Of a stretch of DNA of 64,000 bases, positions 1 through 29,100 are shown in pieces. A model generated the notes under the pieces. It searched no databases. It saw only the letters and a program-made list of their open reading frames with translations, and had not been told where the DNA came from. How positions within the stretch are numbered: position 1 is the stretch's first letter; every line of letters begins with the position of its first letter. Source of the DNA: a virus; the IMG/VR virus record IMGVR_UViG_3300027797_000001, positions 50,923 to 114,922 of that record. One strand, written 5' to 3'. The position numbers and the translations under genes are program-made.

Positions 1-3000
1 GGTGGTTTACCTAAAGCTCAAAAAGGTGCAGCTACATACCAAGATAGTTTAGATGTATATAATAATGCTTTAAAACTAAAAGCTTTTTATGATTCAAAAA
101 AACAATTATATAATATATCTACTAGACCATGGTATGGTACAAGCAATTTAAAAAAGGAAGAAAAAGAAACATATGATTATGATAAAAATCCGGCTAACAA
201 TCCGGATGTAAAAACTTGGACACCTCAACAAAAAAGAAATTTTCAAAAAACAAAAGATTTAATTAAAGCAAATAAAGATCCAAACATTGCTTATATTACA
301 GATCTAATAACAGGTGCTTTAGATCCAGATGCTCCTGCTTCAAGATATGATAATAGAATTAAACCTCAATCAGAAATAGCATATTCGCCTTATAAAGCTC
401 AATATTCAAAAACAGAAGACTCACTTTATGACAAACTTCAGAAAAACTATGATGGTATGAGTAGTTATGGTGATCCAAGATTTCCTACCTTAACTCCAAG
501 TAAAAAAGATCTTTTAGATTATGCTAAAAAACTTGGTTATAGTCAAAAAGATGCTATAAGTCTTTTATATAAACTTAAAAGAGAAAATCTTGCTATGGCA
601 AACACACCTGGAGTTAATACTATCTTACCATATTATGATCCTCTTGCAGTAAAACCTGGGAAACTCCTTACAGATGATGAAATAAGAATTAGAGTTAAGA
701 AATATGGTACAACTGGTATTCCTCAAAATAGATTAGACAAACTTGGTTTAAATAGTTCAAACCCACCAAAAAGTTCAAACCCACCGAAAAAAAGTACATC
801 TTCTACAGTTACTAAATCACCATGTTCAAATCCAACAACTACTGTTATAAATAATGTACCAGATAAAATTCCTTTTGGAAAAAAGTTAGTTGGTACAGAT
901 GAAGAAACATTACCAGTAACTGGGAAAAAATGTGAGTATGTTAAAACTATAAATCCAATTTATGAGGATGTTACAATAGATCCTATTAAACCCCCAGCAA
1001 TTGCATTAAGAGTAGACAATGGTATTTTACCACCATTGCAACAATCAACTTATGTTCCACAAGAACCTATTGAAGCTCCACAATATGCATTAGGCCCTTA
1101 TACTGCTGATAGATTACGTTTATCAGTAACACCTGGAAAAACAAAAAAAGTAACAAAACGTGGAAGATTGTTTGATGGTAAAGGTCAAGGATATAAACAT
1201 ACAGAATATAAATCAACTAAAGATTTGGAGTTTGGAAAAAAAGAAGTTACTAGATTAATACCAAGAATTGTTCAGAAGATTACTGGTTATGATCCAGAAT
1301 ACTTTGAAGGTTCTTATGATGAAGAAGGTAACTATATTCCTGGAGAATTAGACTTTGGTAATGAGGTTGGTGGTAGAATGGAATTTAGAGGAGCTGCATC
1401 TTTACAAGATTTAATAAATCAACAGAAGTATGCAAAAGACTGGGAAGAGTATGAAAGAAAGATTGATGAGAGAGAAGAACAATCAAAGAAAAAACAAGAA
1501 GAGGGTAGAGCATTTAAAAAAGGTGGAACAAAGAAAAGAATATATAACCCTAATGCAAAGTATTATGCGGATGGTGGAGAAAATTTACAAGAAGAATGTC
1601 CACCATATCACTATTGGAATGGAGAAACTTGTGTTCCAGTTAGTAGAGAGCTTGCTCCTCTTGATCCACAATACTTATCAGAAAATCCAGATGTTGCAAC
1701 AAACATGCAAATTGAACCAGAAGTAAGTGTTAGTCCATTAGGTTCGGATTTTTCCAAGGCAAAGTCATGGATTGATAAATGGCATGATTCTCCAATGCAT
1801 GATAAAATGCTTATGAAATCATTACAGGGTAATAAAAAACTTTTTAAAGAATATAAGGATAAAAGAAAAAAAAATATACAAACTATTCCAGCACTAAATA
1901 TTAGTTTAGATAAAAGTGATCCTTTATATAAAGAAATAAAAGATTATTATGGGTTTGCTCCATGGGGAGCATCGGATAGTAATACAGGTGCTGTTTCAAT
2001 ATATAATTCTCATCCTGGAAATAAACAAATGTTAATTCATGAGGTTACTCATTCTTCTGATAGACCAGATGATAAATTAGGTAGACTTATTCCACCTAAT
2101 GACCAATTAACAATACAATATAGAATCCCATTAAATTGGAAATATAGTCAATATGGTAAAGATATGATGAAAGAATATAAAGAAAAAGGGTGGCGGTTAG
2201 ATGATGAATATATGGGTGAAGAAGAAATACCAAGAGATATATATGAACAACAACAATTTAATGATTGGAATAAATATTTATTAAGTGACCAAGGAACTGA
2301 GGTTAGAGCAAGATTAAGTGAGATAAGACAGGATGCACAAGAACAAAATATTTATGACCCTTTTAATAAAAAAATAACAAGAAGGCAATTTAAAAATTTA
2401 AAAAATATAAAATATCCTGATTCATTAGATGACCTTAAAAAAACTTTTTCTGATAAAGATATAAAGTGGATGTTAAATAACATTTCTAAAAACAATAATG
2501 AAACTGAAGATGCTATTCAATATGGTAAAAAAGGTGGGGCAAAGAAAAAATACACAAGTGATATAATTAATAGTACTAATTATCTTTTTGCGGAACATCC
2601 TTTATTTAAAAAGAAGAAACAATCTAAGAAAAGAATATATAACCCTAATGCAAAGTATTATCAATTAGGTGGATTAACACGATTTGTACCACAAGCTGGT
2701 AGAATGTTTGCTTTACCACCTATTACTAATACAATTGCAAATACTGCACCAGGTATTTTAAATTCTATAAAGACTATATCGCAAAAACTTCCTACTAATT
2801 TATTAGATGAAGGTGCAAGAGATTTATTACATTATCCTAGTTTTGATGTTACACTTGGAGAATCAAATTTAACAGGAGTTGATGCTGCAAAGTATTTGGG
2901 AGACTTTGGCTTTAAACCATATTCAGAAGGTTGGACAGCTCTAAGTGACATGAAAAATGCATTTGAAGGAAAACAATGGAATCCTAGTAAAGAAGATTAT

Positions 3001-5541
3001 TATACTCTTGATGAAATTTATAATTTAATAAATAAGCAAACAAATTATTTAAATGATCTTGCTAAGTTTAATGAAACAAATCCTGATGAATTAGGTGAGT
3101 ATGGAAATTTATTAAGATGGATGCAAAATGATTTTAGTAGAGATGAATTATTTTCATTGTTATTTCCAAATTCTAGTAGACCAAATTTTAAAGAAAAATT
3201 TTATCGCCCAGAACATATAAATTTATTAAAACAAACTACACCCAATCCTGAAACTGGTATAAATTTATATGATAATTTAATTAAAAATACCAATTTTGGA
3301 GATAAAGGTTTAGTAGATAAGTATACATTAAGAAGATCAATAACAGAACCTAATACTGAAATATTACCGGGATCTGAAGATCTAATGTTATATAGACAAA
3401 GATATGAACCCTACAGAGGTTTAGATGCTGGTAATTTAAGTGAACGTAAAGATGTAATAGAGTTTCTTAAAGATCATGATGGCATTTTAGGTTTTGAATT
3501 TAAAGATCTTAATAATGAATATTCCAATAATTTAAATTATTGGAAAGAACAAATATTTGAAAAGTTTGATAATCGACAATATAAAAAATTTCAAAAGAAG
3601 TTTAAAGAACAATCTAAACCTGGAACTAGCTCTAAACTTAAAGGATTAGATGCTTATAATCAAATAATTAATAGAACTGGTTCTAGAAATAAATACGGAG
3701 GAGAACTACCTAAAGGTAAATACGGATACTCTGTTGGTAATCTTATAAGAAAACAATTTGGTGGTTTAGGTAGAGATCAAAGTTTATCAGTTTCACCATA
3801 TGATCTTGATACTTACATTGGAGCTTCTGGAAATCAAATATATAATCCAGGATATAGTCTTACATATAATAAGCCAAACCTTTTTAAAAAATTAGATGTA
3901 GTTGGAACTCCTTTTCAAGTATCAATAGGAAGACCTTATAATACTGATCCAAATAGTTTAACTAATCAATCTTTAAATTTTGGAACATCATATGACTATG
4001 AATATATGGATCCAGGAGTACAACAAGGTCCACAACAAGAAGCTATAAATAATGCAGCTGCACAATATTTAGGAAAGGATGTTCAAGATTTAAACCAATC
4101 TGATTTAAATAAATTTTCAGCATTTAAATCATTAGGGGAAATTAAAAATGCTTATGCTCCAGGAAAACCAATTAATTTATCTACAAAACTTTCATTTTTA
4201 GGTAAAGCATTTAGTGACCAACCTGTTAGAGGTTTTGGATCAATATCTGGTGGTTATAATCCTGAAGCAGGTTTTTGGGCAGGAGCTGATCTTGGAGGTT
4301 TTGGAGTAATCTCAAATAAAAAACCAAAAACATATTTTGATAGAGGTTTATCTAGAAAAGGAGATTGGGCGGTTATTCCTAGTCTTTCTTTATTCTCTCC
4401 AGCAATTAGACAAAAAGGAATTGCAAATCTAGAACAATCTGCAGAGTATAAACGCTTATTAGAAAAAGATATACAAGAGGGTACTGATTCAGCACAAAAT
4501 TATTATGATAATCAATTAGATGATCAGGGTAAGTCAACAATGACATTTAATGCAAGACCGGAAATTAAAGCGCAACTTAAACCATTTAAAAAGTTTCCCG
4601 GAATCTTAGAAGGGGTAGTTGGAGCTAATATAGATTTTATAAGTGGTGGTAAGGATTCTATGGATAAAATTACAACTAATATAAACCCATACGGCAAAAT
4701 ATCATATGCTGTTTCTATTCAAGATGAGTTAGATAGAATGAAACGTAAGATGAAAAATGTAGAATTTCCTGATAAAAAACACTATGAAGATTACGTAGAA
4801 GAATATGAAAATCAAACTACAGAAGAAACTCCTACAGAAACTGATAATCAAATTAATCCACCGGAGGTTGAATTAAATTTTGATGGTCAAGGAGTAGGAA
4901 AAGCAGACTGCCCTAAAGGCTATGAAAGACCATGTGAAAAATGCAGATGTCAAAAAATAAAAATGCCTCAAATGTATACAGACAAAAGAGGTAAACAGTT
5001 ATTTGGCAATGAGCCTATTAGATTTCAAGATGGTGGAGAACAGGATGCAATGAATGCTATGATGAAAGCAAGACTTGCTTATGCTAATATGTTTGGTAAT
5101 CCCTCAGCACAAAGAATGATTAATCTTCCAGATCAACCTTATGAATTTGATAATGGGAATACAGGCACACACTACATGGCAAGTATGGATAACTATGCTG
5201 TACCTCAAATTCAAGATGAGAATGGAGTATTACAGATTGGAAACTATGGTCCAGAATCTACTGAGGCAATGAGATTTGACTCAGATGAAGATGCTAATTA
5301 TTTTGCAGAAAACTATAAAGATGTTTCACCAGGATTTATGGATCTAGAACTTGATGATAATGAGATAGAAGAATACAGAAAAGGTGGTTATATAATAGAA
5401 GATATTTCTGTGCCTTCACTAACTAGAATGCAGCCTGTTGGTAAATATCAAGATGGTGGAGAATATCAATTGGGTGATGAAGTAGATGAAGCTACTATGA
5501 AACAATTAAAAAAATTAGGTTTTACATTTGAACAAATTTAG
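1..5541 (+). CDS. Large modular virion/cargo protein (5' truncated by the window), with GG-motif-delimited modules including a HExxH zincin-like module
   Basis: Frame 1 is open from base 1 (GGLPKAQKGAATYQ...) into the listed ORF at 457, so the true start lies upstream. Contains repeated [FY]xxGG motifs and HEVTH at 2038-2052. Lies in the structural block upstream of the virion RNAP. Confidence 0.75.
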   Translation, partial: GGLPKAQKGAATYQDSLDVYNNALKLKAFYDSKKQLYNISTRPWYGTSNLKKEEKETYDYDKNPANNPDVKTWTPQQKRNFQKTKDLIKANKDPNIAYITDLITGALDPDAPASRYDNRIKPQSEIAYSPYKAQYSKTEDSLYDKLQKNYDGMSSYGDPRFPTLTPSKKDLLDYAKKLGYSQKDAISLLYKLKRENLAMANTPGVNTILPYYDPLAVKPGKLLTDDEIRIRVKKYGTTGIPQNRLDKLGLNSSNPPKSSNPPKKSTSSTVTKSPCSNPTTTVINNVPDKIPFGKKLVGTDEETLPVTGKKCEYVKTINPIYEDVTIDPIKPPAIALRVDNGILPPLQQSTYVPQEPIEAPQYALGPYTADRLRLSVTPGKTKKVTKRGRLFDGKGQGYKHTEYKSTKDLEFGKKEVTRLIPRIVQKITGYDPEYFEGSYDEEGNYIPGELDFGNEVGGRMEFRGAASLQDLINQQKYAKDWEEYERKIDEREEQSKKKQEEGRAFKKGGTKKRIYNPNAKYYADGGENLQEECPPYHYWNGETCVPVSRELAPLDPQYLSENPDVATNMQIEPEVSVSPLGSDFSKAKSWIDKWHDSPMHDKMLMKSLQGNKKLFKEYKDKRKKNIQTIPALNISLDKSDPLYKEIKDYYGFAPWGASDSNTGAVSIYNSHPGNKQMLIHEVTHSSDRPDDKLGRLIPPNDQLTIQYRIPLNWKYSQYGKDMMKEYKEKGWRLDDEYMGEEEIPRDIYEQQQFNDWNKYLLSDQGTEVRARLSEIRQDAQEQNIYDPFNKKITRRQFKNLKNIKYPDSLDDLKKTFSDKDIKWMLNNISKNNNETEDAIQYGKKGGAKKKYTSDIINSTNYLFAEHPLFKKKKQSKKRIYNPNAKYYQLGGLTRFVPQAGRMFALPPITNTIANTAPGILNSIKTISQKLPTNLLDEGARDLLHYPSFDVTLGESNLTGVDAAKYLGDFGFKPYSEGWTALSDMKNAFEGKQWNPSKEDYYTLDEIYNLINKQTNYLNDLAKFNETNPDELGEYGNLLRWMQNDFSRDELFSLLFPNSSRPNFKEKFYRPEHINLLKQTTPNPETGINLYDNLIKNTNFGDKGLVDKYTLRRSITEPNTEILPGSEDLMLYRQRYEPYRGLDAGNLSERKDVIEFLKDHDGILGFEFKDLNNEYSNNLNYWKEQIFEKFDNRQYKKFQKKFKEQSKPGTSSKLKGLDAYNQIINRTGSRNKYGGELPKGKYGYSVGNLIRKQFGGLGRDQSLSVSPYDLDTYIGASGNQIYNPGYSLTYNKPNLFKKLDVVGTPFQVSIGRPYNTDPNSLTNQSLNFGTSYDYEYMDPGVQQGPQQEAINNAAAQYLGKDVQDLNQSDLNKFSAFKSLGEIKNAYAPGKPINLSTKLSFLGKAFSDQPVRGFGSISGGYNPEAGFWAGADLGGFGVISNKKPKTYFDRGLSRKGDWAVIPSLSLFSPAIRQKGIANLEQSAEYKRLLEKDIQEGTDSAQNYYDNQLDDQGKSTMTFNARPEIKAQLKPFKKFPGILEGVVGANIDFISGGKDSMDKITTNINPYGKISYAVSIQDELDRMKRKMKNVEFPDKKHYEDYVEEYENQTTEETPTETDNQINPPEVELNFDGQGVGKADCPKGYERPCEKCRCQKIKMPQMYTDKRGKQLFGNEPIRFQDGGEQDAMNAMMKARLAYANMFGNPSAQRMINLPDQPYEFDNGNTGTHYMASMDNYAVPQIQDENGVLQIGNYGPESTEAMRFDSDEDANYFAENYKDVSPGFMDLELDDNEIEEYRKGGYIIEDISVPSLTRMQPVGKYQDGGEYQLGDEVDEATMKQLKKLGFTFEQI
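754..789 (+). repeat. 18-bp tandem repeat x2 (SSNPPK)
   Basis: agttcaaacccaccaaaa / agttcaaacccaccgaaa. Confidence 0.9.
1531..1566 (+). repeat. 36-bp exact direct repeat, copy 1 (KKRIYNPNAKYY)
   Basis: aagaaaagaatatataaccctaatgcaaagtattat, identical to 2626-2661. Confidence 0.95.
2626..2661 (+). repeat. 36-bp exact direct repeat, copy 2
   Basis: Identical to 1531-1566. Confidence 0.95.
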
Positions 5542-5543
5542 TG

Positions 5544-8500
5544 ATGGCAAAGTATAGAATTACAAGTTTACCGCAGTCTTTACCTAAAGCACAAAAAGGA
5601 TTATTTAATAAAAGAAATAAAATATCTGTTAGAAACGGTGAAGTTAAATTGTTTCCAAATTTATTTGGTGATAAAAAAAGAAACAATATAGATACTCAAG
5701 ATCAATCAGATGATACACAATATAACTGGTCTGGCACAACTCCAGAATTAATGCAACCTGATCAAGAGTCTTTTGAATTAAAACCTACATATGCACCAAC
5801 ACCAGAGTTTACTCAAGCAGATGTTAATTTAAGTTCTACTCTTAGTAAAATACAAGAGGAGAGAGACAGATTAGCTCAAGAAAAAGAAAACAAGGATTGG
5901 GAAGAGATGATGAAAAAAAGAGATGAGAAATTTAAAACTTCTAAAAAATATGATAAAATAGAACCTTTGCTTACAATTGATTCTGAAGGATATGCAGATG
6001 AGGATCTTGCTTATTTTCAAGAGGCTGGATATTTTCCAGTAAAAGATTCAAAAACAAATAAAATAAATTTATATCCATCAAATGAAATAAATTCAAAAAT
6101 TATTAATAATGGTTTAAGAACAGATGAGATTGTTAAAAAACTTGGAATAGGTGATGCTGAATCTGTGAAGTCTGCTTTTGGAGATTTAATGACTGCTGCA
6201 GATCAACAGTATTCGGCTACTGTTCAAAACAAATTATTACAAAAATCACTAGATGAAGGTATTAGTTTAGAAGACGCAGTTAAAAAATTATCTGGTAAAC
6301 TTGGAACTGAAAAAGGTCTTCAAAAATATGTTGCGCCTACTACTGATTTAATAAATAATTATATTGATGAAATTAAAAAAAATGTAAACCAACCTGCGGA
6401 GAAAGAACTTCAGTCAATGTACTATGATAATAGAAATCCTAATCAAGGTTATTCTCCAAAGATTGATTATAATTCATATGATCCAGGGTTAAAATATAAC
6501 ACGGATTATTATAATACTACAAATAATTGGGGACAATTTCTTAAAGACTATTCTGATTATAATAAAGAGTATGATAAAGAATATGCAGATTCATTTTATA
6601 ATAAACAAAATCAAACTGCTGATAAATTAAATTTACCTGTGTCAGATAGAACAGGAAATTTAAAAAATCAACAAGATGTGATTAATCAAAATATATCATT
6701 AACTAAACAAGTTGGAGATGTTTCTACAGAAGCAGGAAATAAAACAATAAATAAGAAGTATATAGAACAACTACAGGCAGACATGGCAAGAGTTTCTGAT
6801 CCTTTAGTTAAATATGAACTAAGTAAAAAACTTGATGCAGTAAAAAATAATCCAGAAGCTTTTTCTAAACTCTTAAAAGGTTTTGAATCTGGAGAAGTCT
6901 TTACAAAAGAAGATGAAGATAATATCAATGCTTTAACTTTTAGTATCCTTCAAAAAGAATCAAATCCAGATACTATAAAAGCTGGTGTAGATAGACCTAA
7001 ACTTACAACATCAGATAAAGTATTTGATGTATTAACTAATCCATTTGACGCATTTAAATATTCAAACCAAGGAGGTTTAGATAATATGTGGACTAGCGGT
7101 ATGGGTTATAATGAAAGAAAACTTTTAGAAAGAGCTAATCCAGAATTAAATCTTGGAACACAAGATAATCTAGTTGGTAATGCTTTGAATACATGGAATC
7201 CAATGAGATTTGCAAGAGATGTAGATTCTGATCTAGATAGAGAAGACTATGCTTCTGCTGGTTTAGAGGCACTTGAGTTTGCTACTCCTGCAATGTTTTC
7301 AAAAGCTGCAAGAGCTGGTAGATTAGCTAGAGACGCAAGTAAGTTTTTTCCAACTGGTTCAATCACACCAGGATTAAAAGGATTTACCGGATCTGCTTTT
7401 GAATCATTAAATCCCTATTTTGCATATGAGGCAATAAGACCAGGGGGAGAATTAAATAGATCATACGATTTACTTAAAGAAGGAAATATTAAAGAAGGAC
7501 TTCAAGAAGGTGCTTTTGGTCTATTAAATCTTTTACCTGCAGCTGGTACTTTTAAAAGTTTAAAAAGTGCTGAAAACATAGGTGGTGCTAAACCATTTGT
7601 ATCACAACAATTAAGTTTTAAGAAAGGAGGAGAGTTACCTACTTATCAAGGGCCAATAAGATCAATTGTAAAAAGTATTCCTTCTAAACTTGGTAATTTA
7701 GCAATGAAGACTGGAATAAAAACATTGCAACTTCCCGGAGTTAAACCTTTTTTTAGAAGTAACTATAATCCAATTAGTTATCCAATTAGTTATCCAATAA
7801 AACTTTTAGGTGAAAAAATAGCTAGACAATCTCTTAGTCCAAGTAGAAATAAAGAACAAGTTATTGCTGCACTTACTAAAAAAGCAGCCCCAGAAGAAAA
7901 CCTTTATTTTGGTAATGTAACTGCTGTGGATCCAGAATATGGTTATGGTAAAAGAGATTTAATTGCTAATTATTTTAGAGGTATAGATACTGGTTTTAAA
8001 CCAATTGACTATGATATTTATTCAGATCCTGGTTTAAAAAAATATATAGATAGATATGGACCTTTAAAAACATATGAACTTAATTCATCTGTTAAACATG
8101 GTCAACCTTTAGACATTGCTGATTTTACTAGGCTGCTAAATATAGATGATACTAAATTAAGTAATTTTGATCAAGATCTTTATGAAGATGAAGTTTTTCA
8201 AAATATGCCTGGTTTAGAAGATTATTACTATAATGAGTATATGAATAATCTTCCTGGAACTAGTACTCCTAGTCCATATAAAGCACAAAGACAATACTAT
8301 AAAAAAATGTTACATCAATATTTTGATAAACGCGGTATAGAAGTTCTCCCTCTAGTTGTTGATCCAGATTTGAATACATTAGGTAATGTTAAAAATTATT
8401 TAAGCCGTAATCCCGCTATATCATATGATGATCTTGCTGGTCATATGGGTTATTTAAAAAGATTGCCAAACAAAGAAGATTTTGAATTTACTACAAGAGA

Positions 8501-8732
8501 TATATGGAAATTTACACCTGATGACTATCATTCTAAATGGGCAGGATCTTCAAATAAAGATGAACTGTTTAAACAATTACAAGTTGAGGCTATGGATGCA
8601 TTTGGAAAACCATTTGTTTTAACCCAAACAAATCCAATGAAATTTAAAAACGGTGGTTCAATGGAATTAGAATTAACACCAAAACAAATTAAAGAGTATA
8701 TAAAAGCTGGATATATCATTGAAGATATCTAA
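5544..8732 (+). CDS. Virion/cargo protein with N-terminal KYRITSLP..LPKAQKG motif and C-terminal ELTPKQIKEYIKAGYIIEDI motif
   Basis: Long ORF (ATG 5544, or GTG 5541). Shares terminal motifs and FKKGG/FKNGG motifs with its neighbours. Confidence 0.75.
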   Translation: MAKYRITSLPQSLPKAQKGLFNKRNKISVRNGEVKLFPNLFGDKKRNNIDTQDQSDDTQYNWSGTTPELMQPDQESFELKPTYAPTPEFTQADVNLSSTLSKIQEERDRLAQEKENKDWEEMMKKRDEKFKTSKKYDKIEPLLTIDSEGYADEDLAYFQEAGYFPVKDSKTNKINLYPSNEINSKIINNGLRTDEIVKKLGIGDAESVKSAFGDLMTAADQQYSATVQNKLLQKSLDEGISLEDAVKKLSGKLGTEKGLQKYVAPTTDLINNYIDEIKKNVNQPAEKELQSMYYDNRNPNQGYSPKIDYNSYDPGLKYNTDYYNTTNNWGQFLKDYSDYNKEYDKEYADSFYNKQNQTADKLNLPVSDRTGNLKNQQDVINQNISLTKQVGDVSTEAGNKTINKKYIEQLQADMARVSDPLVKYELSKKLDAVKNNPEAFSKLLKGFESGEVFTKEDEDNINALTFSILQKESNPDTIKAGVDRPKLTTSDKVFDVLTNPFDAFKYSNQGGLDNMWTSGMGYNERKLLERANPELNLGTQDNLVGNALNTWNPMRFARDVDSDLDREDYASAGLEALEFATPAMFSKAARAGRLARDASKFFPTGSITPGLKGFTGSAFESLNPYFAYEAIRPGGELNRSYDLLKEGNIKEGLQEGAFGLLNLLPAAGTFKSLKSAENIGGAKPFVSQQLSFKKGGELPTYQGPIRSIVKSIPSKLGNLAMKTGIKTLQLPGVKPFFRSNYNPISYPISYPIKLLGEKIARQSLSPSRNKEQVIAALTKKAAPEENLYFGNVTAVDPEYGYGKRDLIANYFRGIDTGFKPIDYDIYSDPGLKKYIDRYGPLKTYELNSSVKHGQPLDIADFTRLLNIDDTKLSNFDQDLYEDEVFQNMPGLEDYYYNEYMNNLPGTSTPSPYKAQRQYYKKMLHQYFDKRGIEVLPLVVDPDLNTLGNVKNYLSRNPAISYDDLAGHMGYLKRLPNKEDFEFTTRDIWKFTPDDYHSKWAGSSNKDELFKQLQVEAMDAFGKPFVLTQTNPMKFKNGGSMELELTPKQIKEYIKAGYIIEDI
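7768..7798 (+). repeat. 12-bp tandem repeat, about 2.6 copies (PISYPISYPI)
   Basis: atccaattagtt atccaattagtt atccaat. Confidence 0.85.
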
Positions 8733-8790
8733 ACCTTTGAAGTTTACTCATTAAATTTATTTTTAGTATATTTAATATATAACGTGCACA
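8730..8790 (+). promoter_or_regulatory. Putative late promoter region: TAAAC-N7-GTTTA box plus TTTTAGTATATTTA..TATA element
   Basis: Same arrangement recurs at 15082-15143; AT-rich intergenic gap ahead of a structural gene. Confidence 0.45.
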
Positions 8791-11700
8791 ATGACAAAAA
8801 AGAAAGTAAGAATATACAAGGCTCCAGATGGTAAAGGTCAGTATATAAATAAAACTGCAAAGTTCTTAAAGAAAGCTGCATTTGGTGGTCAATCAGATAC
8901 TCCGCAAGAGGATATGTATTCTCAATTGGCACAAGCTTCATATATGTCTATTAAAAAGGGACAAAGTCCAAAGGCAGTATATGACTTTTTAATTAATAAT
9001 AAAATTAGTAAAGATGTTGCTGAGAAAATTGTGACAAGTGTTATACAGTTCATGATGTCAAAAGGTGAATTAGAACAAGAAGACCTTGACGAAGATCAGC
9101 AAAAAGAGCAACAGATGCAAGCTCAAATGCAACAACAGCAACAAGAAAAAGAACAAATGGCTTCTGAACAAGATGCTGCTAATGAAGCACAGATGGACAT
9201 GTACAACAAACAAAGTATGGATGTTGCTAATGACATGTCTCAGTATGATCAAGAAGCAGAAGCTAACTTAGATACAGAAGATATATTAGGTTTTCAGGCT
9301 GGTGGTCAAATGACTACAGATGATTTATTGTCAGAACTTAATAAGCATGATAATGATATTAATTTCCAAGATTTAGAATCATTAATTCAGTCTACTCCTG
9401 GAACACAAAGTGCATCATTCCCAGGGATTGAAGAATACTACTTACCTTATATTCCACTTTATAGTGAAAGCAATGAGATTCCAATTTATAATCCAATACA
9501 AAGTGATAATCAATATAAGTTTGGGGGAAAAACAAAAAAGAAATTTATAGGATCAGTACTAGAACTTTTAAAGAAAGAAGAGGGTGGCGAGGATGAAGTA
9601 ATTAATAATACTACAGCTACTCCTAAAGATGATCTTACAAATACTGTTAAGAGAAAACAAGATTCATTTGTATCAGCATTAAGTGACGAAGCTAAAAAAA
9701 TAAAAATAGAAGAGTATTATAATCAAATTAAAAATACAAATGATCCAGATACTCAAGAAATTTTAGGTGGAGGCCCTGATCAAATGAAAAGGGGTGGCAG
9801 AACTAAAAGAAAAGATAATAGACTGCTTAGAAAATTAAATAGAATACTAGGACAAAATGATATGTATGGTATGCAAGGGTATATGCCATATAATTATTTT
9901 AATAAGCGTAGTGGAGATTTTGCAAATCAAAGATTTGATACTTTAGACTATCCATCAATTGCAGAATACTATAAAGCATTGTTAGAGAAAATGCCAGTGT
10001 TAAATCAAATGTCAAGAGTATTGCCTCAAGTAGATGTTTATGACACAGGTTTATTTGGTAGACCAAAGAAGTATAAGATTTCATATAACATTCAACCAGT
10101 AGATAAATCTGCAGAAAGACAAGCTATGGAAGCTGTTATTAAGAACAATACTGGATCATCTTTCCCAATGTTATATCCAAATCCTGGTTATGATGGTTCT
10201 CCTGCTCCAGCTGGTACAATGTTAGATGTAGTTAATGACCGCTCTATAGCTCCTATACAATATGATGCATCTGTAAAACCTATGGTTCCTACAGGTCCAA
10301 TGGCTTTTCAGTTTGGAGGTTCAGCTATTTTTGATCCTTCTGCAAGTACATTAGCAAAATATATCTATGGTGGCAATGATTTTCCAGAAGATTCTAAGAA
10401 TGTAAATGATCCATACTTTTCAGATACTACACCATATCCACAAATGCAAAATGGCGGAGATCCCACTGAATATACACATTATACTCATGGAGCTAATGAT
10501 GTATTTCATGATAACATGAATATGATAAATCAAGCTAAGGATGGTTTAGAAACTGGTGGTGATGAATATGCTCTTGATTATATAAGACAACTTGCTGGTC
10601 AAATGAAGCAGTATAATAAAGCTTCTAGAAAATTAGGAAGGCAGGCAAGAAGAATGACTGGAAATACCATGTTAGATTATTTAATTCCTATCAATAGACC
10701 TTTTGAGTATGCAGGAAGTTATGGTCAACAAAGGGGAATGCCATTTGATTATGAGACCGGTGAAGAATACACCGGTGAAATAGACCCATCTAATTTTGTA
10801 GCAAGGGATAATTATAAAATAGGAATGTTTGGTAAACCTAAAAAATTTATAGATTATTATTCAGTAGGTAATGAAGGACTTAATGTTCCAGATGATTTTT
10901 CAGAAATTGAACCATATACAAAGTCAAAACAAAAAGCTCCTGCTCAACAAGATGTTTATAATGAACAAGAAGAGGAAGACATTTCTTTTCGTCAAGCAAG
11001 AAGGAATGATGGCGTAAGTAATATTAGAGGTGCTTTTGCAAGAATGTTTCCTGAAAGTTCAGGTAGAGAAGATAGAGAAAGAATGTTTCCTATGCTCAGA
11101 GCTCAAGACTCAGATAGAAGTGAAGACAGAAGATTGTTTCCAATGATGAGGGCGGATAAAAAACAAGAAGGTGGAGAACCAAACCAGGATGATTATTATA
11201 ATGATTTATTTTCTAAATTAAACTATAGTAATACCTATAGCAATTATTACAATGAATTAGAATTTAGAAAAGGTGGAAGAGTATTAAGAAAAGCATTTGC
11301 GGGTTTAGAAAATACACCTGTTTCATATAATGACAATCCAGTTACTTCACAAAATATTATTAGTCAAAATACTCCAGATCCTATGGAGCAAATGACAGCA
11401 TTTCAAGGACCTATTATAGAAGATAGTGACTTTAATTTTCCAACTGATCTTCCTGGACCAGTTTCTACAACTAAACCTTATGTTGAACCTGCAGAAGATG
11501 ATTGGTCAGGTCCTCAAATGAGTAATCCAGACATAGATTATCCTGCTGGTCCTGAGAAACTTAAAAATAAATTAGTAGGTGTTAAGAGAAAAAGAAAAGA
11601 TATGTTTAATATAGATCCAGAAGCAGGTGTTAATGCATTTAATGCTGGAGCTAGAGGAGTTCTTGGTGGTATTGATAGAATGAGGAATAAGAAACAAGAA

Positions 11701-12147
11701 GCAAACATGTATGCTAAAAACTTTGACCCTACTAAAATTTATGGACAAAAATCAAGAATAGATAAAGGTGACTATGATGTAAATAAAGGATTGTATAGAG
11801 TAAATCAAATGGGTGCTGATAGATTAGGCCGCTCTAAAAAGTATGGAGGTTATATGCAACCAGGAGGATCAGTAGATCAACAAATGTATTACCCTGAAGA
11901 CAATATGGTTTATCCTCCAGGAGATAGTCAGTATCCAATGATTCCTTTGAATCAAGATATTATGGATATGATGTATAACCAATACTATTCTGATCCTAAC
12001 TTTGCACCTTATATGGAAGACCCATATATGGAAGAAACTCCAGAGCAAATGGACTACAGAATGGTAAAAGAAGGTGGAGAAACCTATATGTCAGATGAAC
12101 AAATAAATGCCTTCTTAGCTGAAGGAGGAGAAATTGAATATTTATAA
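8791..12147 (+). CDS. Low-complexity Q/M/D-rich virion/cargo protein with about 15 xxGG motifs
   Basis: 1118 aa ORF with AAFGG, FQAGG, YKFGG, MKRGG, FQFGG, YIYGG, MQNGG, FRKGG, KKYGG, MQPGG and others; C-terminal MSDEQINAFLAEGGEIEYL. Confidence 0.75.
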   Translation: MTKKKVRIYKAPDGKGQYINKTAKFLKKAAFGGQSDTPQEDMYSQLAQASYMSIKKGQSPKAVYDFLINNKISKDVAEKIVTSVIQFMMSKGELEQEDLDEDQQKEQQMQAQMQQQQQEKEQMASEQDAANEAQMDMYNKQSMDVANDMSQYDQEAEANLDTEDILGFQAGGQMTTDDLLSELNKHDNDINFQDLESLIQSTPGTQSASFPGIEEYYLPYIPLYSESNEIPIYNPIQSDNQYKFGGKTKKKFIGSVLELLKKEEGGEDEVINNTTATPKDDLTNTVKRKQDSFVSALSDEAKKIKIEEYYNQIKNTNDPDTQEILGGGPDQMKRGGRTKRKDNRLLRKLNRILGQNDMYGMQGYMPYNYFNKRSGDFANQRFDTLDYPSIAEYYKALLEKMPVLNQMSRVLPQVDVYDTGLFGRPKKYKISYNIQPVDKSAERQAMEAVIKNNTGSSFPMLYPNPGYDGSPAPAGTMLDVVNDRSIAPIQYDASVKPMVPTGPMAFQFGGSAIFDPSASTLAKYIYGGNDFPEDSKNVNDPYFSDTTPYPQMQNGGDPTEYTHYTHGANDVFHDNMNMINQAKDGLETGGDEYALDYIRQLAGQMKQYNKASRKLGRQARRMTGNTMLDYLIPINRPFEYAGSYGQQRGMPFDYETGEEYTGEIDPSNFVARDNYKIGMFGKPKKFIDYYSVGNEGLNVPDDFSEIEPYTKSKQKAPAQQDVYNEQEEEDISFRQARRNDGVSNIRGAFARMFPESSGREDRERMFPMLRAQDSDRSEDRRLFPMMRADKKQEGGEPNQDDYYNDLFSKLNYSNTYSNYYNELEFRKGGRVLRKAFAGLENTPVSYNDNPVTSQNIISQNTPDPMEQMTAFQGPIIEDSDFNFPTDLPGPVSTTKPYVEPAEDDWSGPQMSNPDIDYPAGPEKLKNKLVGVKRKRKDMFNIDPEAGVNAFNAGARGVLGGIDRMRNKKQEANMYAKNFDPTKIYGQKSRIDKGDYDVNKGLYRVNQMGADRLGRSKKYGGYMQPGGSVDQQMYYPEDNMVYPPGDSQYPMIPLNQDIMDMMYNQYYSDPNFAPYMEDPYMEETPEQMDYRMVKEGGETYMSDEQINAFLAEGGEIEYL

Positions 12148-12156
12148 TTTTGTATT

Positions 12157-15084
12157 ATGTATCATAGAGTAAGAATTAAAAAATTGCCACAGGCAAGAAC
12201 AGGTTACCAAGTACAAGGTTCACTAGCTAATGATGTACCAGCTTTTGGTGGAGCAGATTATAATGCATATATAGGAAAACCAAATCTTAGACAAAGTAAA
12301 TATATTACAGCTGTACCAAGAGATGAAGCTAACTTAGAAGCAGAAGGTGGAGAAACTGTATATGGTGACATCAATGGAGATGGTTTTCCAGAACACAAAG
12401 TTATAAAAGGACCAAGACACTCAGCAGGTGGTGTACCATTATCATTACCAGATGATACATTTATTTTTAGTGATACTAAATCAATGAAGATAAATGATCC
12501 TAATGTTTTACAAATGTTTGGTAAAGCACCTAAGAAAGGAAAAGGTCAACATGGCTTTACTCCAGCAGATCTTGCTAAGCAATATGATATAGATAAGTAT
12601 AGAAAAATATTACAAGATCCTGACTCAGATCATATTGCTAGAAAAACTGCTGAACTAATGATCCGTAACTATAATATGAAGTTAGGAGCTTTAGCATTAG
12701 CACAAGAAGCTAAAAAAGGATTTCCTCAAGGTATACCAGTAGTAGCTAAACCTTACATGGAAGCTATGGGTCTTACAGAAGATAAACTTCTACCAGCTGA
12801 ATATAGAACATTGTCAGCTCCACAAGAAGAAGAAGAAATGCCAGAAGATCAAATGCAAGATCCTTCACAACAATATGCTTCTGATGATTATGATGTAGAG
12901 AATACACCATATGATACAGAAGAAGAAATGGGAATGCAACCTGGTATGGGATTAGATCAAGCAGCCATGGAAGGGCAAATGCAAATGCCACCTATGGCTA
13001 TGTATGGTATGGAGATGGGAGGTTATGATATGCCTTTTGCTGCATATGGTATGCCTATGGGAGCTAATTCTAGTAACTATATGGGAAGAACTAAAAGAAT
13101 CCAAGGTAGTGGTCCATTTCCAAACCGTCAAATGGCTAGAGAAGGAATTATTGCGGGTGGTGTATTAGGTATGCCATTGGTAATGCAAGATGGTGGATAT
13201 TTACCTAAAGCTCAAACAGGACCAACAACACCTAAATATAAAACATATAATGAGGCTGATCTTCCTGCAGGAACTGCAGTTAAAGATCCTAAAGATATGA
13301 GTCTTAAGGTTGGTGATTATGTAAGACAAGCAGATGGTACAGTAACTAAAGTTACTAGTGCGGCTTTAAAAACAAAAGTTGATACACAAACTCGACCTGG
13401 TACAAGAGCAGACTTTATGAATGCATCTGCTGATAACAAAGCTATACTAGAAGCAGGAGATAAAATTATTGATAAAGCAATAGCCAGTGGACAAGCTGTA
13501 AGAGGTTATAAAAAACCAGATGGTACTTGGGTAAATGACAAAACAAAATCTGGTGTAAGATTATTAGGAGATTTAAATTTACCATTTGAAGATAGAATTA
13601 TACTAAGTAGAGCACTTAATTCTTCTCAAGAATTTGGTACTAATAAATATAAGGTTGAATCTCAAGCAATGACCAAAGGTTATTCTAGAAAAGTTGATGG
13701 TAAATTTAAAGGTTCAGGATCTTTTGTTTCTGGATTTACACCTGAAGATTATGAGAAGAGATATCTTTTTGAAAAAGCTAGAGGATTTGGTTTAAATGAT
13801 CAAGAAGCATTTGATCAAATAAATAAAATATATGCGGATCCAGCAAAAACTTCTGAGATTAGAAAAGAATATTTAAATTATTTAGGAAAAGGAAATTTAG
13901 CTACTGGTAAATCAGATGCTGATTTATTAAATCCTAATTTTTATAAAGCTAATTATGCTGAAGTAACTTCTGGAATTGAATCAGTATTAGGTGCAGCAGC
14001 AAATAGACCTACAATAGGTGATGAGCAATTATCTGGTTTTGAGCACTTTGATGCTGCTGGTTTAAGTCCAGAGTTTAATTATGAACCACCTGAGAATCCA
14101 TGTCCATGTAAAGATGATAGTGGTCAAACAGTAGTTAGAGATGCTGATGGAAATTGCCCATGTCCAGATAAACCAAAAGATTGTCCTTGTGGTAAAGATC
14201 CTATAACTGGACAATGTAAACCATGTGACGAAATACCACCGGGAAAAAAACCTCCTGTTACTCCACCAGCTAAATGGTGGTTGCAAGATACAATTAAAAC
14301 TACTGGTGCATTTGGGGATTTAATGGGTATTAAAAAATATATGCCATGGTCACCTAAAGTAGATCTTGAAGAACCAAGACCTACATTCTTAGATCCTACA
14401 AGAGAACTTGCTCAACAGTCTGAACAAGCAAATCTTGCCATCATGAATTTAGCTGCATTTGCTGGACCACAAGCTTTATCTAGTAGAGCATCAAGCATAC
14501 AAGGAACTGGGGCTAAATCAGCCGCAGATACTTTATCTAGAATAAATAATGCTAATGTTGGTATAGCAGATAATTTTGAGATGAAACAAGTAGATATTAG
14601 AAATCAAGAAGCACTTGCTAATCAAGCTGGACAGCAAAAACTTTATGATGCAAATACTATAGCTAATCAACAGTTTGATAATTCAAGAATGGCATTAAGA
14701 AATCAAATGAGAAATCATTATACAAATGCTATTACTAATAAAGCTAAAACAGCTACATTAAATCAGTTGTATCCACAGTACGCAGTCTTGCCAGAGACTG
14801 GTGGTATGCCAGGATTTAAAGGCGGTAAGCCAATTAAACCTGAAGTTACAAAAACTGCTCAAGAATACTTTGATGAGATAAAACTACAGTATCCTGATAT
14901 GGATGACAAAACCGCATATCAAATGGCTAAAGATAGAGCAGGTACTCAAACAACCGATGATAATGCTATGGATGTTGTTAATGCACAATACAATGTTCCA
15001 TCTGGAACAGATATGAGATATGGAGGATTTGCTAATGGAGGCTTTGTTTATGGAGACTCAATCTATCCTTTCTTTTTTACTTAA
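12157..15084 (+). CDS. Virion structural/cargo protein with an EAEGGE...GPRHSAGGV domain and a Cys-Pro-rich segment
   Basis: 975 aa ORF. The N-terminal ANLEAEGGETV...GPRHSAGGVPL...FIFSD pattern resembles proteins of crAss-like structural modules (recalled, not searched). CPC repeats at 14098-14226. Confidence 0.7.
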   Translation: MYHRVRIKKLPQARTGYQVQGSLANDVPAFGGADYNAYIGKPNLRQSKYITAVPRDEANLEAEGGETVYGDINGDGFPEHKVIKGPRHSAGGVPLSLPDDTFIFSDTKSMKINDPNVLQMFGKAPKKGKGQHGFTPADLAKQYDIDKYRKILQDPDSDHIARKTAELMIRNYNMKLGALALAQEAKKGFPQGIPVVAKPYMEAMGLTEDKLLPAEYRTLSAPQEEEEMPEDQMQDPSQQYASDDYDVENTPYDTEEEMGMQPGMGLDQAAMEGQMQMPPMAMYGMEMGGYDMPFAAYGMPMGANSSNYMGRTKRIQGSGPFPNRQMAREGIIAGGVLGMPLVMQDGGYLPKAQTGPTTPKYKTYNEADLPAGTAVKDPKDMSLKVGDYVRQADGTVTKVTSAALKTKVDTQTRPGTRADFMNASADNKAILEAGDKIIDKAIASGQAVRGYKKPDGTWVNDKTKSGVRLLGDLNLPFEDRIILSRALNSSQEFGTNKYKVESQAMTKGYSRKVDGKFKGSGSFVSGFTPEDYEKRYLFEKARGFGLNDQEAFDQINKIYADPAKTSEIRKEYLNYLGKGNLATGKSDADLLNPNFYKANYAEVTSGIESVLGAAANRPTIGDEQLSGFEHFDAAGLSPEFNYEPPENPCPCKDDSGQTVVRDADGNCPCPDKPKDCPCGKDPITGQCKPCDEIPPGKKPPVTPPAKWWLQDTIKTTGAFGDLMGIKKYMPWSPKVDLEEPRPTFLDPTRELAQQSEQANLAIMNLAAFAGPQALSSRASSIQGTGAKSAADTLSRINNANVGIADNFEMKQVDIRNQEALANQAGQQKLYDANTIANQQFDNSRMALRNQMRNHYTNAITNKAKTATLNQLYPQYAVLPETGGMPGFKGGKPIKPEVTKTAQEYFDEIKLQYPDMDDKTAYQMAKDRAGTQTTDDNAMDVVNAQYNVPSGTDMRYGGFANGGFVYGDSIYPFFFT

Positions 15085-26105: not shown

Positions 26106-29100
26106 ATGGCTTGTTTATTAAATGAGAAAGATGTACTAGACATCTATAGTGATATATATGAGAATTTTTTAGAAGTACTTGATTCTAAATCTAAGACACC
26201 ATTTAGTCCTATAGATTATATTAAGACAATGCATTCTGACATTGCAGAGAATAATGATCCAAAGTTTGCATTAGAAGTAGTTCAGGCAATCCCACAAATC
26301 ATGTTGCAAGTAATTGCAACTAGAGGAGATGTTAGAAAATATATTGCTCTTAATAATATTGATACTAATTCTTTAATTAAGTTATCTGTAGACTTTGAGA
26401 AAATTGAAAATGTAAAAAAGTTTATAGCAGGTAAGATGCCATCTTTGTCTGATGTTAAATCTAAGATAGCTACAAAGAATAAATCTGATAAAGAAGTTAA
26501 ATTAAAAAATCCAGAAGATACATCTGAAAATAGTGATAATAAAGTATCTAATACAAAAATAGAAGATCCTTTAACATCTACATTTCAATATGCAAAAGCA
26601 GTTAATCCTGACACAGCTACAGAAGAAGAGTTAGAGCAAAGAGATCCTGAAAAAAATACCACACACTCTGTAGTAAAACAAATCATTGGTCTATTTGATA
26701 ATAGACCTGCAAATAGTGATGAAGTTATCTATCAAGGTACATCAGTTGCTTTAAGACCTATGATGCTTAACATGGTTCCTAAAGAACAATTGTTTAGTGA
26801 TGATGCAAAATTTTTAGAAGAAAATCCAGAATATAATGGGATAGTAGTTATTATCTCAGATGTTGATGGTAATATTTTAAACTTTGATGAAGATGGTAAC
26901 TTAGTTGATGATGGTAAAATTGCATATCAGTATTTAAGAGATTTAGAATTAAAAAATTCAAAGATCTCTTTAATGAATAGATCAGGATATAAGTATGAAC
27001 TAGTAAGTGCAGAACAAACTTTAAAAGCTGAAGACAAAAAAGAAAAAGAAAGGAATGGTCTTGGAATGTCTCAGAAACAAAAAGAAAATAGACTCATAGA
27101 AATTGAAAATGAGCAAAAACAAAAAATGAATGATCTATATAGAATCAGACAGTTTGTTATGCGTAATCCAGAAGAGGTATTTACTTTAAAGATTATAGGT
27201 GGCTCATATGGTAATTTTAAAAATAAGTTTATACCACTTTCAGAAACTGGATTAAATTTAAATGAGATTACATTACCTATTGCTGCAGGTCCGCAAAAAG
27301 GTTATATAAAGGTTAGAATTAAAACTAAAGGTGCTGGTGGTTACATAGATCACTATGTCTTATTACAAAGAGGGGATGTAACTTCAGAGATAGCAGATAA
27401 GATAGCTACAATATTAACTACTGATGCTGTATATAGAGGAAAACCATTATCAGATCTTGCTAAATATACATATGCAAATGTATTTTTAGATAATGCTATT
27501 GAAAAAAATAACATTAGAATAGATCTAAAAAAAGTTAATGGATTTAATGAATTACAAGTTTCTATCAAAGGAGAGAAGGTTGATTTAGATTCACCAACAG
27601 CTTTTGATGAAATTAAAAATCATTTACTTAAAGCGGTAGAACTAGGGAGTAAAACATATCCTGCTAATTTAAATTACAATAAAGATTTAATTGGAGGATC
27701 TTTTACTGATTATATAATTAAAGATGGAAAAGTAAGCACTAGAAAACAAGATTACTTTGAGTTTATTAAACCTTATATGAAAATTGAGTTTAGTAAATTA
27801 TCTGGAGGCTTCTTTATGAATAGTAATTCATATCTACAATTTGCGGTTCCAGAAGAAATTTTACCACCTAGTAAAAGAAATTATAGTTTAGCATCAACTA
27901 CATCTACAACAAATAAAGTAAAAGAAGTAGAAACACAAGATGTTGAAGATGAAGAAAGTGTAGATGTAGAACCAGGTGAGGTAGTATACAATCTTAAAAA
28001 ACAAGTTGGGTACGCACTTGCTACAGAGAATGCACAGAATACTGATGTAACATTAAACATTGCTGTTAATTTTGAACAGGGAGAAGCTAAGATTGCAAAG
28101 AGAAGTGCAAAGAATCATGTTCCAGTTACACTTAATAAAAAAAGATCTACACAAAAAAGCTTTGGTAATTTAACTACCATAGCTGGAAATGTAATTAAAC
28201 AACTAAATAGATTCAAGTCAGATACATTAAATGTAGCAGGTAATGATATTGTTACATCTATATTTAATGGTTATACACAACAAGATCTTGATCAGTTTAT
28301 GAATCAGTTATTTGAAAGAATAGTTAATTCAGATAGCTTAATTACTCCAATTAAAAAGATTGTAACTACTGGTGAATCAGGAGTTCCTGAATCAGCAATT
28401 AAGGCAGCTAAGAAAAATGGAATTGGTGTTGAAATTACTGTACCTACAGGATGGACTTTCTTTGTCTATAGAAAAAATAGTGCAAATAAAAAATACAAAA
28501 TATCAAACCTTGAAGAATTTAAGGCAAGATTTGGGGATGCTAAAGTAAAGACAACAGCTAAAAGAAAAACTAGTAGTACTATTAATAAAACTAAAAGTAA
28601 ATTTACTAAGGCTAAAACAACTAGTAGAAAGACAACTCCTAAGAAGACTACTAAACAAGCAAATAAGAAAGTAGATACTCAATTAAATAAATCTGCAATA
28701 AGCACACAGTTTAGTTTATTATCTAGACTTGGTGAAAGAAGAGAGTTATTTAAAGGAGACAATGACGAACTTAATAGATTAGATACTTTAGAAAGAAAAG
28801 TGGGTAATTTCTTTGAGAGATTATTTACTACTAAAGCTCAGAGAGATTCTATTTATAAGTGGTGGGAAACTCATCCAATGTCTAAGCATGTTCCTTTAGA
28901 TATTATAACCGGGATTGTTAATTCTGATGCTTTTGCAACTTGGAGCCAACATGGTATTACTTTGCACTTAGCAAATAATGCTACCCCTATTGACTTATGG
29001 CATGAGGCATGGCATGGATTTACTCAGTTATACTTAACTCCTGAAGAAAAAACTAAACTCTATGATGAGATTAGAAAAACTCCAAAGTTTGAGAATGCTA

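Follow-up and report, generated by a model that had tools for sequence, protein, structure and literature searches.

Crassviruses are among the most abundant phages known, and their particles must load, store and release several megadaltons of internal protein. Here we show that a five-residue peptide motif, [FYM]-x-x-G-G, is a selected signal located at the ends and joints of autonomous modules in three classes of protein at the cargo position (cargo A, B and C) and in small basic proteins of the head module of a crAss-like phage. The DNA analysed is a stretch of 64,000 nucleotides (hereafter the window), positions 50,923 to 114,922 of IMG/VR record IMGVR_UViG_3300027797_000001, which constitutes the right-hand 64 kb of a phage genome of 114,922 bp that is complete (CheckV completeness 100%) and bears direct terminal repeats. 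The cargo proteins are the products of its first four open reading frames (ORF1-ORF4), and all sites described in them lie on the plus strand. The field already knew of cargo proteins, polyvalent proteins and a zincin-like domain in virions. The motif, together with its grammar and its connection with small basic head proteins, appears to be new; none of the papers searched describes it for crAss-like phages.

A Gly-Gly signal at the ends and joints of cargo modules

The enrichment of the motif was manifested when each protein was compared with shuffles of its own residues (300 shuffles). ORF1-ORF4 hold 21 copies of [FYM]xxGG, whereas 3.8 +/- 2.1 are expected and none of the 300 shuffles attains 21. 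The strict form [FYM][QKR]xGG occurs 16 times (0.70 expected), and a second motif, LP[KQ][AG][QRK]xG, five times (0 expected). A preliminary description of this DNA had pointed to these repeats and proposed precisely such a test; all the motifs that it listed are present in the translations where it placed them, including GGLPKAQKG at base 1, GGELPKGKYG, GGYLPKAQTG, SLPKAQKG and LPQARTG. Its remark that the four larger genes downstream are not similarly dense also holds, since the giants ORF5-ORF8 (9,550 aa) contain neither [FYM]xxGG (3.1 expected) nor the strict form (0.56 expected). As a control, GG..[FYM], the motif reversed, shows no enrichment (6 observed, 3.9 expected), and the remainder of the genome stays at expectation (9 observed, 9.2 expected). 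The same contrast is found among relatives. In 57 related loci, the ORFs downstream of the muzzle gene contain 571 copies of [FYM]xxGG versus 116 expected (strict form, 302 versus 21), while the tail ORFs upstream contain 47 versus 67.5 (strict form, 2 versus 6.3).

At the sequence level, a logo of 566 unique sites shows information at five positions only, Y/F/M/A, Q/K/A/R, D/Y/K, G and G, so that it lies upstream of Gly-Gly and none of it downstream. The glycine codons of the motif are used as elsewhere (GGT 0.62 versus 0.57; GGA 0.31 versus 0.37), and therefore selection acts on the peptide. Among 462 unique sites, proline is enriched 2-2.4-fold at positions -6, -5, -3 and -2 and 1.6-1.7-fold at +6 to +8, and depleted to 0.14-fold at +1 and to 0.25-fold at the residue just after Gly-Gly; the residue after Gly-Gly is hydrophobic in 45% of the sites versus 27% in the background. 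Because proline is enriched at -2, -3, -5 and -6, most sites are not preceded by a helix, and a helix C-cap (Schellman) interpretation was rejected. The sites are often paired, 5-30 residues apart. PIRFQDGGEQDAM and TPKMKSGGSTPAW are two peptides that contain the motif. In an AlphaFold2 model of ORF4 residues 1-400 (30 sequences), domains are confident at 45-215 and from 361 on, whereas the leader (14-40) and residues 225-360, which contain AFGG, MEMGG, MQDGG and LPKAQTG, have a pLDDT below 50.

The phage is assigned to the crAss-like group by its capsid protein, which matches Pfam Crass_capsid, and by its terminase and portal, which match crass-type PHROGs; two genes match CrAss tail ring families. 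A muzzle-like protein of 1836 aa, with 57 relatives at 31-87% identity, is encoded just before the window. In crAss001 the cargo genes are gp45 and gp46 and follow the muzzle gene (PMC10172136). The muzzle-like gene upstream, together with the crass-type head and tail genes, therefore puts ORF1-ORF4 in the position of these cargo genes, and by analogy their products are probably packed into the head. Megablast of positions 1-15084 against phage records gave no match, and PHROGs and Pfam searches with ORF1-ORF5 returned nothing usable.

ORF1 (1..5541; 1936 aa) is the first half of cargo A. It truly begins 270 nt upstream of the window, immediately behind the muzzle-like gene, and a conserved N-domain is followed by shuffled modules. 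Besides MKNGG just upstream of the window, it carries seven [FYM]xxGG sites within it: FKKGG (1513..1527), YADGG (1564..1578) and YQLGG (2659..2673), the latter two at the ends of copies 1 and 2 of a direct repeat, FISGG (4636..4650), FQDGG (5023..5037), YRKGG (5374..5388, within the element EIEEYRKGGYIIEDIS) and YQDGG (5446..5460). FQDGG stands immediately before the conserved S7 module (5038..5430), the most widespread module of cargo A (34 loci, 63% mean identity), for which the AlphaFold2 model is unusable (mean pLDDT 39). ORF2 (5541..8732), the second half of cargo A, opens with the leader MAKYRITSLPQSLPKAQKG, carries FKKGG (7617..7631) and FKNGG (8643..8657), and finishes with the C-terminal tail ..FKNGG..ELTPKQIKEYIKAGYIIEDI. 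ORF3 (8791..12147) encodes cargo B, with the leader KKKVRIYKAPDG..KFLKKAAFGG, the tail ..FLAEGGEIEYL and eight sites, FQAGG (9292..9306), YKFGG (9514..9528), MKRGG (9784..9798), FQFGG (10306..10320), YIYGG (10360..10374), MQNGG (10444..10458), FRKGG (11263..11277) and MQPGG (11854..11868). A complex prediction, with alignments, of the ORF2 tail with the ORF3 leader (40 aa each) scored 0.22, below the mark. ORF4 (12157..15084) encodes cargo C and is composed of the leader RVRIKKLPQARTGYQV..VPAFGG, the folded domain 45-215, the disordered linker 225-360 with motifs, and the tail MRYGGFANGGFVYGDSIYPFFFT. Its sites are MEMGG (13009..13023) and MQDGG (13183..13197) in the linker and MRYGG plus FANGG (15013..15042) in the C-terminal tail. 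The GG pairs at residues 288-289 (MEMGG), 346-347 (MQDGG) and 956-957 are invariant in 12 orthologues and that at 961-962 is nearly so (90% or more), while the flanks are variable or deleted. In the middle of ORF4 (window 14050-14250, residues about 630-700) there is also a cysteine-rich stretch, CPCKD..CPCP..CPC..C, in which C649, C651, C669 and C690 are conserved among orthologues and which is likely a zinc knuckle, as judged from its sequence.

The arrangement of these elements follows a grammar of ends and starts. Cargo A proteins begin with a 92-aa domain followed by MKNGG and end with EL[TS]xxEIxxYxKGG-YIVEE[LI]D; cargo B proteins begin with KKRVRIYK(..)AQxGG and end with FLANGG-EVEYL; cargo C proteins begin with RVKIKKLPQARTGYQV..AFGG and end with KYGGxxFxxGG-FVYxDxxYPFIL. 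Leaders that end in the motif are present in more than 10 proteins. The second motif marks starts. In the window it appears as LPKAQKG directly after MKNGG (7..27) and LPKGKYG after NKYGGE (3706..3726) in ORF1, as LPKAQKG in the ORF2 leader (5580..5600), and as LPQARTG in the leader (12184..12204) and LPKAQTG after MQDGGY (13201..13221) of ORF4. In the wider form [LIV]P[KQT]A[QRKN]xG, it is matched 50 times across 122,000 aa of cargo, whereas tail ORFs totalling 117,000 aa contain no match; 25 of the 50 lie within 25 aa of the N-terminus, nine others have a GG at most four residues upstream, and further listed examples stand slightly farther behind a GG. End elements can also be internal to longer ORFs, as in L007, where cargo A is a single ORF of 2789 aa with ..YVKGGYIVEDISVPSLTRMDNGG.. 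inside it. In relatives, segments of ORF1 are found at other positions and in other combinations. When cargo proteins are aligned with one another, 22-33% of the ends of high-scoring pairs are no more than 8 aa away from a motif, versus 10% of random positions. The blocks between motifs are unrelated in sequence, as the preliminary description had noted, and are shuffled modules. Because end elements, second motif, fusion or fission and breakpoints coincide at the internal joints, such a joint has the appearance of an end signal fused to a start signal. As a separate observation, in four loci (L024:15481, L047:15484, L056:15526 and L025:15403) cargo A opens with a SET-domain-like sequence (..SKIxGAGKGLF..KGE.IG..) in place of the 92-aa N-domain.

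The signal is not restricted to positions 1-15084, as had been supposed at first. Outside the window, at genome positions 31605-34488 (L001:11606-14486), flanked by the capsid-adjacent gene on one side and the first tail ring gene on the other, there is a cluster of seven small, very basic proteins (80-284 aa, K+R 0.18-0.24) with 11 copies of the motif versus 0.7 expected, mostly as M-[KQ]-x-G-G. Pfam matches exist for two of the seven (DUF5872 and DUF6321). The seven resemble DNA-condensing core proteins and may be virion components; crAss001 has no equivalent cluster at that place. Across 80 loci found via the capsid protein, small basic ORFs contain 343 copies of [FYM]xxGG versus 37 expected and 248 of the strict form versus 9.7, whereas the other ORFs contain 183 versus 114 and 14 versus 18, respectively. 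The motif again stands at the end of a leader or at a joint: in the 116-aa basic protein MKSGG lies 10 aa ahead of the DUF6321 domain, and in L142 the separate 86-aa and 116-aa genes are one ORF with MKTGG retained at the joint just before that domain.

Candidate enzymes for a Gly-Gly signal

The preliminary description had called for a search of the genome for a maturation protease. In a six-frame HMM search of the complete genome at E<=1, C39 (PF03412), C5 (PF00770) and C48 (PF02902) peptidases gave no match, and neither did Prok-JAB (JAMM); a very divergent C5 or C48 enzyme might escape such a search. What emerged from a scan of the proteins for HExxH was a zincin-like domain in ORF7, the virion RNA polymerase (RNAP) homologue, as a candidate, and a motif in ORF8. 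The ORF7 domain (28923..29150, plus strand; HEAWH at 29001-29015, EEVLAE at 29118-29132) follows the pattern D-[LIV]-Y-H-E-[AG]-W-H..Q-L..L-Y..[DE]-[IL]-E-E-x-[LIM]-A-E-[DE]-[FY]-R. All 50 aligned sequences (the query and 49 homologues) share its HExxH, and nearly all of them the EExxAE block. Across 17 orthologues at 28-61% identity, no variation is seen at H966, E967, H970, E1005 or E1009. The domain aligns to residues 2135-2204 of crAss001 gp47 (YHEAFH..EENMAEGF; BLAST E 4e-4), which is a virion protein (PMC10172136). In phage phi14:2, gp65, which adjoins the RNAP, and its orthologues have been reported to contain a zincin-like protease domain, the three giants to be present in virions and their fused forms to be probably cleaved (10.1101/2020.03.07.982082). 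The HExxH...EExxAE domains of ORF7 and gp47 fit that description, whereas the preprint proposes neither a substrate motif nor a link to cargo or basic proteins. By analogy with crAss001 and phi14:2, we infer that ORF7 is packed in the particle. PF18818 (MPTase-PolyVal) matches neither the genome nor the HExxH regions of ORF7 and ORF1, and Pfam found no peptidase family in the three zincin-like segments or in crAss001 gp47.

The motif is scarce in the RNAP giants. The 49 homologues of ORF7 (172,492 aa) contain 14 copies of [FYM]xxGG versus about 50 expected from composition, and one strict copy versus 8.4; in 12 diverse members there are four versus 12.5 +/- 3.4 by shuffling. Part of this scarcity is a general deficit of GG (77 versus 110 in the 12 diverse members), which makes motif avoidance in these proteins suggestive only.

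Other protease-like sequences of the genome were also considered. A zincin-like module of ORF1 (1579..2673, plus strand; HEVTH at 2038-2052) has HExxHxxDRP and TExRARL invariant in six copies; it matches no Pfam family, and LPD23 is an Atlas lead for it at 0.83, a lead only. Only about 5 of 57 related loci carry this module, which rules it out as the general reader. On either side of its 1.1 kb lies one copy of a perfect 36-bp direct repeat that encodes KKRIYNPNAKYY (window 1531-1566 and 2626-2661). The copies are spaced 1095 bp apart, which preserves the frame, so that gain or loss of the module by recombination is possible. ORF8, which is gp49-like, contains HEFSH (38476..38490, plus strand) followed by KEEALAYA, possibly a second zincin-like motif. 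In the replication module, a gene on the minus strand (51754..52932) encodes a DUF2201_N putative metallopeptidase (HELLH) with a VWA-like domain (Pfam E 2.5e-17, 2.4e-16 and 8.5e-07), a second candidate protease by its domains; the PHROGs label of HNH endonuclease for this protein was discarded for want of Pfam support. It adjoins a gene for a MoxR-like AAA ATPase (window 50573-51742, minus strand; PHROG ATPase). Finally, the 341-aa gene conserved beside the capsid gene, which it follows (L001:10567-11589), with 3,845 close matches in 334 clusters at 50% identity and no Pfam or PHROG family, was rejected as a hidden protease, as 47 diverse homologues share no invariant Cys, His or Ser.

Known systems and rival readings of the signal

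Several known processing systems resemble the arrangement described here, each with a difference. Adenain (C5) of adenoviruses cuts (M/L/I)-X-G-G|X in the core and cement precursors pVII, pX/mu and pVI, and pS273R of African swine fever virus (ASFV) cuts at Gly-Gly-X. The likeness includes a short motif that ends in Gly-Gly, information on the upstream side only, its presence in basic, presumably DNA-associated core proteins as well as in other internal virion proteins, and several sites per precursor. However, the hydrophobic residue is at P5 here and at P4 in adenain, the adenovirus spacing [FYMLI]xGG is not enriched (7 versus 7.5 expected in cargo; 1 versus 1.2 in basic proteins), and no C5, C48 or other cysteine protease was found in the complete genome. 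The proposal of the preliminary description that ORF1-ORF4 are polyproteins of this kind is therefore retained for the polyprotein-like grammar and the candidate virion-borne protease domain, but not for membership of the adenovirus and ASFV systems. In T4 the capsid targeting sequence is cut at LxE by gp21, and the inner-body proteins of phiKZ-like phages are cut at S/A/G-x-E. N-terminal leaders, multiple internal sites in head-internal proteins and a short P-side-only motif absent from tail and replication proteins are common features; the motif is another one, and a prohead protease of the S77 or S78 type was not detected in the present genome. The capsid protein is probably not processed in this phage, to judge from crAss001. 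Double-glycine leaders of bacteriocins and quorum peptides, with hydrophobic residues at -4, -7 and -12, are cut by C39 peptidase domains. The subset LTxxEIxxYxKGG resembles their LSxxELxxIxGG, and GG closes a leader-like helix in both, whereas here the hydrophobic residue is at -5 (a register shift of one residue), the majority of sites are internal with prolines on their flanks, and no C39 domain was found. For polyvalent proteins, a zincin-like MPTase domain has been proposed to cut the chain into functional units, and the N4-type virion RNAP carries one (Iyer et al. 2017; PMC5512222). These are likewise multi-module, fast-shuffling proteins adjoining virion genes, with many unrelated domains in variable order, as are the ORF1 segments and the ORF7 relatives; Iyer et al. 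name no cleavage or junction motif, and the words 'glycine' and 'linker' are absent from their text (PMC5512222).

The closest structural comparison is with crAss001 gp45 (PDB 7QOG; Bayfield et al. 2023, PMC10172136). A Foldseek search with the N-domain of ORF4 puts the gp45 domain that is bound to the portal (7qog_M) in first place (E 0.34), and VIA-align gives Z 5.1, rmsd 4.9, 96 of 126 residues and 24% identity, the next row being at Z 3.7; this Z is below the level of a safe fold match. No link of ORF3 or ORF4 to gp45 was obtained by phmmer, BLASTP, hmmsearch with a 12-sequence profile or hhalign. The gene position after the muzzle gene is common to both, as is an AFGG that precedes the domain by a few residues. 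In gp45, A[FY]GG occurs four times versus 1.07 expected (P 0.02) and [FYM]xxGG three times versus 1.25, which is not significant; the A[FY]GG sites flank the two pieces resolved by cryo-EM, 214-245 and 425-552. They differ from the [FYM]xxGG consensus of the present genome and, since they have no hydrophobic residue at -3, say little about it. The modelled chain apparently passes G428-W429, because it comprises 126 residues ending at 552. In the published gel-band peak lists of crAss001 (PMC6235969), peptide-mass fingerprinting assigned bands 1-9 to gp44, gp50/gp47, gp49, gp20, gp26/gp22, gp22/gp25, gp25 and gp23; gp45 never rose above chance in these bands, so that neither intact nor cut gp45 was visible.

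Cleavage after Gly-Gly is the reading that we favor, with a probability of about 40%, because of the one-sided information, the exclusion of proline, the leaders, the grammar of end plus start, the joining and splitting of ORFs at the motif, a conserved protease-like domain that the same particle probably carries and the weak avoidance in the giants. A protease would read the motif as an extended peptide and cut after Gly-Gly, either in the filled head or on ejection. This would remove leaders of 10-35 residues and separate the modules, and the basic proteins would become short peptides, like adenovirus core precursors or the internal proteins of T4 and phiKZ. The most likely reader would be the HExxH...EExxAE domain of ORF7, by homology packed in the same particle; a hydrophobic residue favored and proline excluded after GG suit the S1' pocket of zincins. 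Various observations weigh against cleavage. No product of it has been observed anywhere, and none of 115 cargo ORFs ends at GG, the last GG being followed by conserved tails of 5-12 residues. Some sites (YxKGG-YIVEE) lie within an apparent small strand-helix-strand element rather than in a plain linker. As for the enzyme, all Gly-Gly-directed proteases known to us are cysteine or JAMM enzymes, none of which was detected in this genome; the classical head proteases S78 (PF04586), S77 (PF03420), ClpP (PF00574) and S49 (PF01343) gave no match at E<=1 in six frames; and the zincin assignment of ORF7 is based on motifs and conservation, with no Pfam or PDB zincin match. Once conditioned on GG, the scarcity of FYM at -3 in the giants is slight (4 versus 8.7, p 0.1). 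To our knowledge, podophages with an exiting scaffold (P22, T7) usually do not process their ejection proteins. The complete scheme, a Gly-Gly maturation system of crAss-like phages in which a zincin-like domain on packaged RNAP proteins cuts cargo polyproteins and basic precursors after [FYM]-[QK]-x-G-G, is accordingly put forward as a tentative and rather unlikely proposal; such a system may be the phage counterpart of adenovirus core maturation, with an unrelated enzyme and a shifted motif.

The same conserved tails and the absence of ORFs that end at GG suit an uncut short linear motif, a multivalent tag that would bind modules and basic proteins to a common head receptor (scaffold, portal, capsid interior or other cargo) and be released when the scaffold leaves or on ejection. 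Restriction of the motif to candidate internal proteins, the avidity that tandem copies 5-30 aa apart could provide, the docking of crAss001 gp45 by short segments to portal and tail rings, with its ordered pieces flanked by A[FY]GG, and the resemblance of the ORF4 N-domain to the portal-bound gp45 domain all speak for such a tag. Nevertheless, no partner has been identified, one-sided information with proline exclusion after GG is more typical of a scissile site, and the motif beside the ring-bound helix of gp45 is not ordered, the model starting at residue 214; the tag gives no reason for the scarcity of the motif in the co-packaged giants, which are thought to be packed without it. We consider it rather unlikely, though the main rival to cleavage. 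Less probable is a passive spacer, a flexible Gly-Gly hinge with a hydrophobic stop and no specific reader that would let modules fold independently and unfold singly through portal and tail. The motif does lie in disordered linkers at module borders, and cargo must pass partly unfolded through a channel narrower than 50 A (PMC10172136), but a hinge needs no invariant GG at orthologous positions, no Phe/Tyr/Met three residues upstream and no Gln/Lys after it, and leaves the leaders on basic proteins of 80-160 aa and the paired start motif unexplained. The most improbable by far is that module shuffling exploits short conserved DNA at the joints as micro-homology, the peptide being its mere shadow. 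The 36-bp repeat around the ORF1 zincin-like module and the coincidence of homology breakpoints with motifs are what it would predict; background use of the motif glycine codons largely refutes it. Moreover, several residues alternate at positions 0-2, orthologous positions retain the motif unchanged while the flanks diverge, and the motif is also found in small proteins that are not shuffled. The remaining probability belongs to other explanations.

Whichever its reader, a five-residue signal at cargo modules provides a direct experimental handle: it predicts mature termini, names a candidate enzyme that by homology is in the particle, and would allow the automatic delimiting of cargo modules in thousands of metagenomic genomes. 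If cleavage is true, it might account for the location of two portions of a single crAss001 cargo protein in separate compartments; should cleavage be excluded, crassvirus cargo would have in this motif its first candidate packaging tag.

Neighbouring genes and minor features

By its capsid protein, the nearest isolate is Leptolyngbya phage Lbo-JY46 (28% identity), whose gene order differs from that of the present genome. Between portal and capsid there is a 414-aa gene with scaffold-like Atlas leads only (0.81-0.83). Downstream of the cargo genes, ORF6 resembles crAss001 gp47 and ORF8 resembles gp49 (BLAST), while ORF7 is related to crAss001 gp50 (BLAST E 5e-20) and by profile to the RNAP gp66 of phi14:2 (6VR4; E 8e-27). 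Relatives of ORF7 bear Zeta-toxin kinase, 2OG oxygenase and ART-PolyVal Pfam domains. In ORF7, D2470, D2472 and D2474 (DFDID) are invariant, whereas ORF8 has NTDMDGDQV at residue 1761 (window 41875-41889), a DxDGD motif resembling that at which multisubunit RNA polymerases bind metal. Because ORF8 has DxDGD while ORF7 holds the invariant DFDID, the polymerase may be split over these two giants, as proposed for crAss001. Cysteine is almost absent from the giants (ORF6-ORF8 at window 18387-43770), with none in ORF5, one in ORF6, two in ORF7 and one in ORF8; the two of ORF7, C3 and C3506, are invariant in 17 orthologues. Two relatives have an additional small gene (..DDEDYYWLSQWNWNA..; L014:16309-16803 and L053:19627-20124) that separates cargo C from the ORF5 homologue and probably encodes a homing endonuclease.

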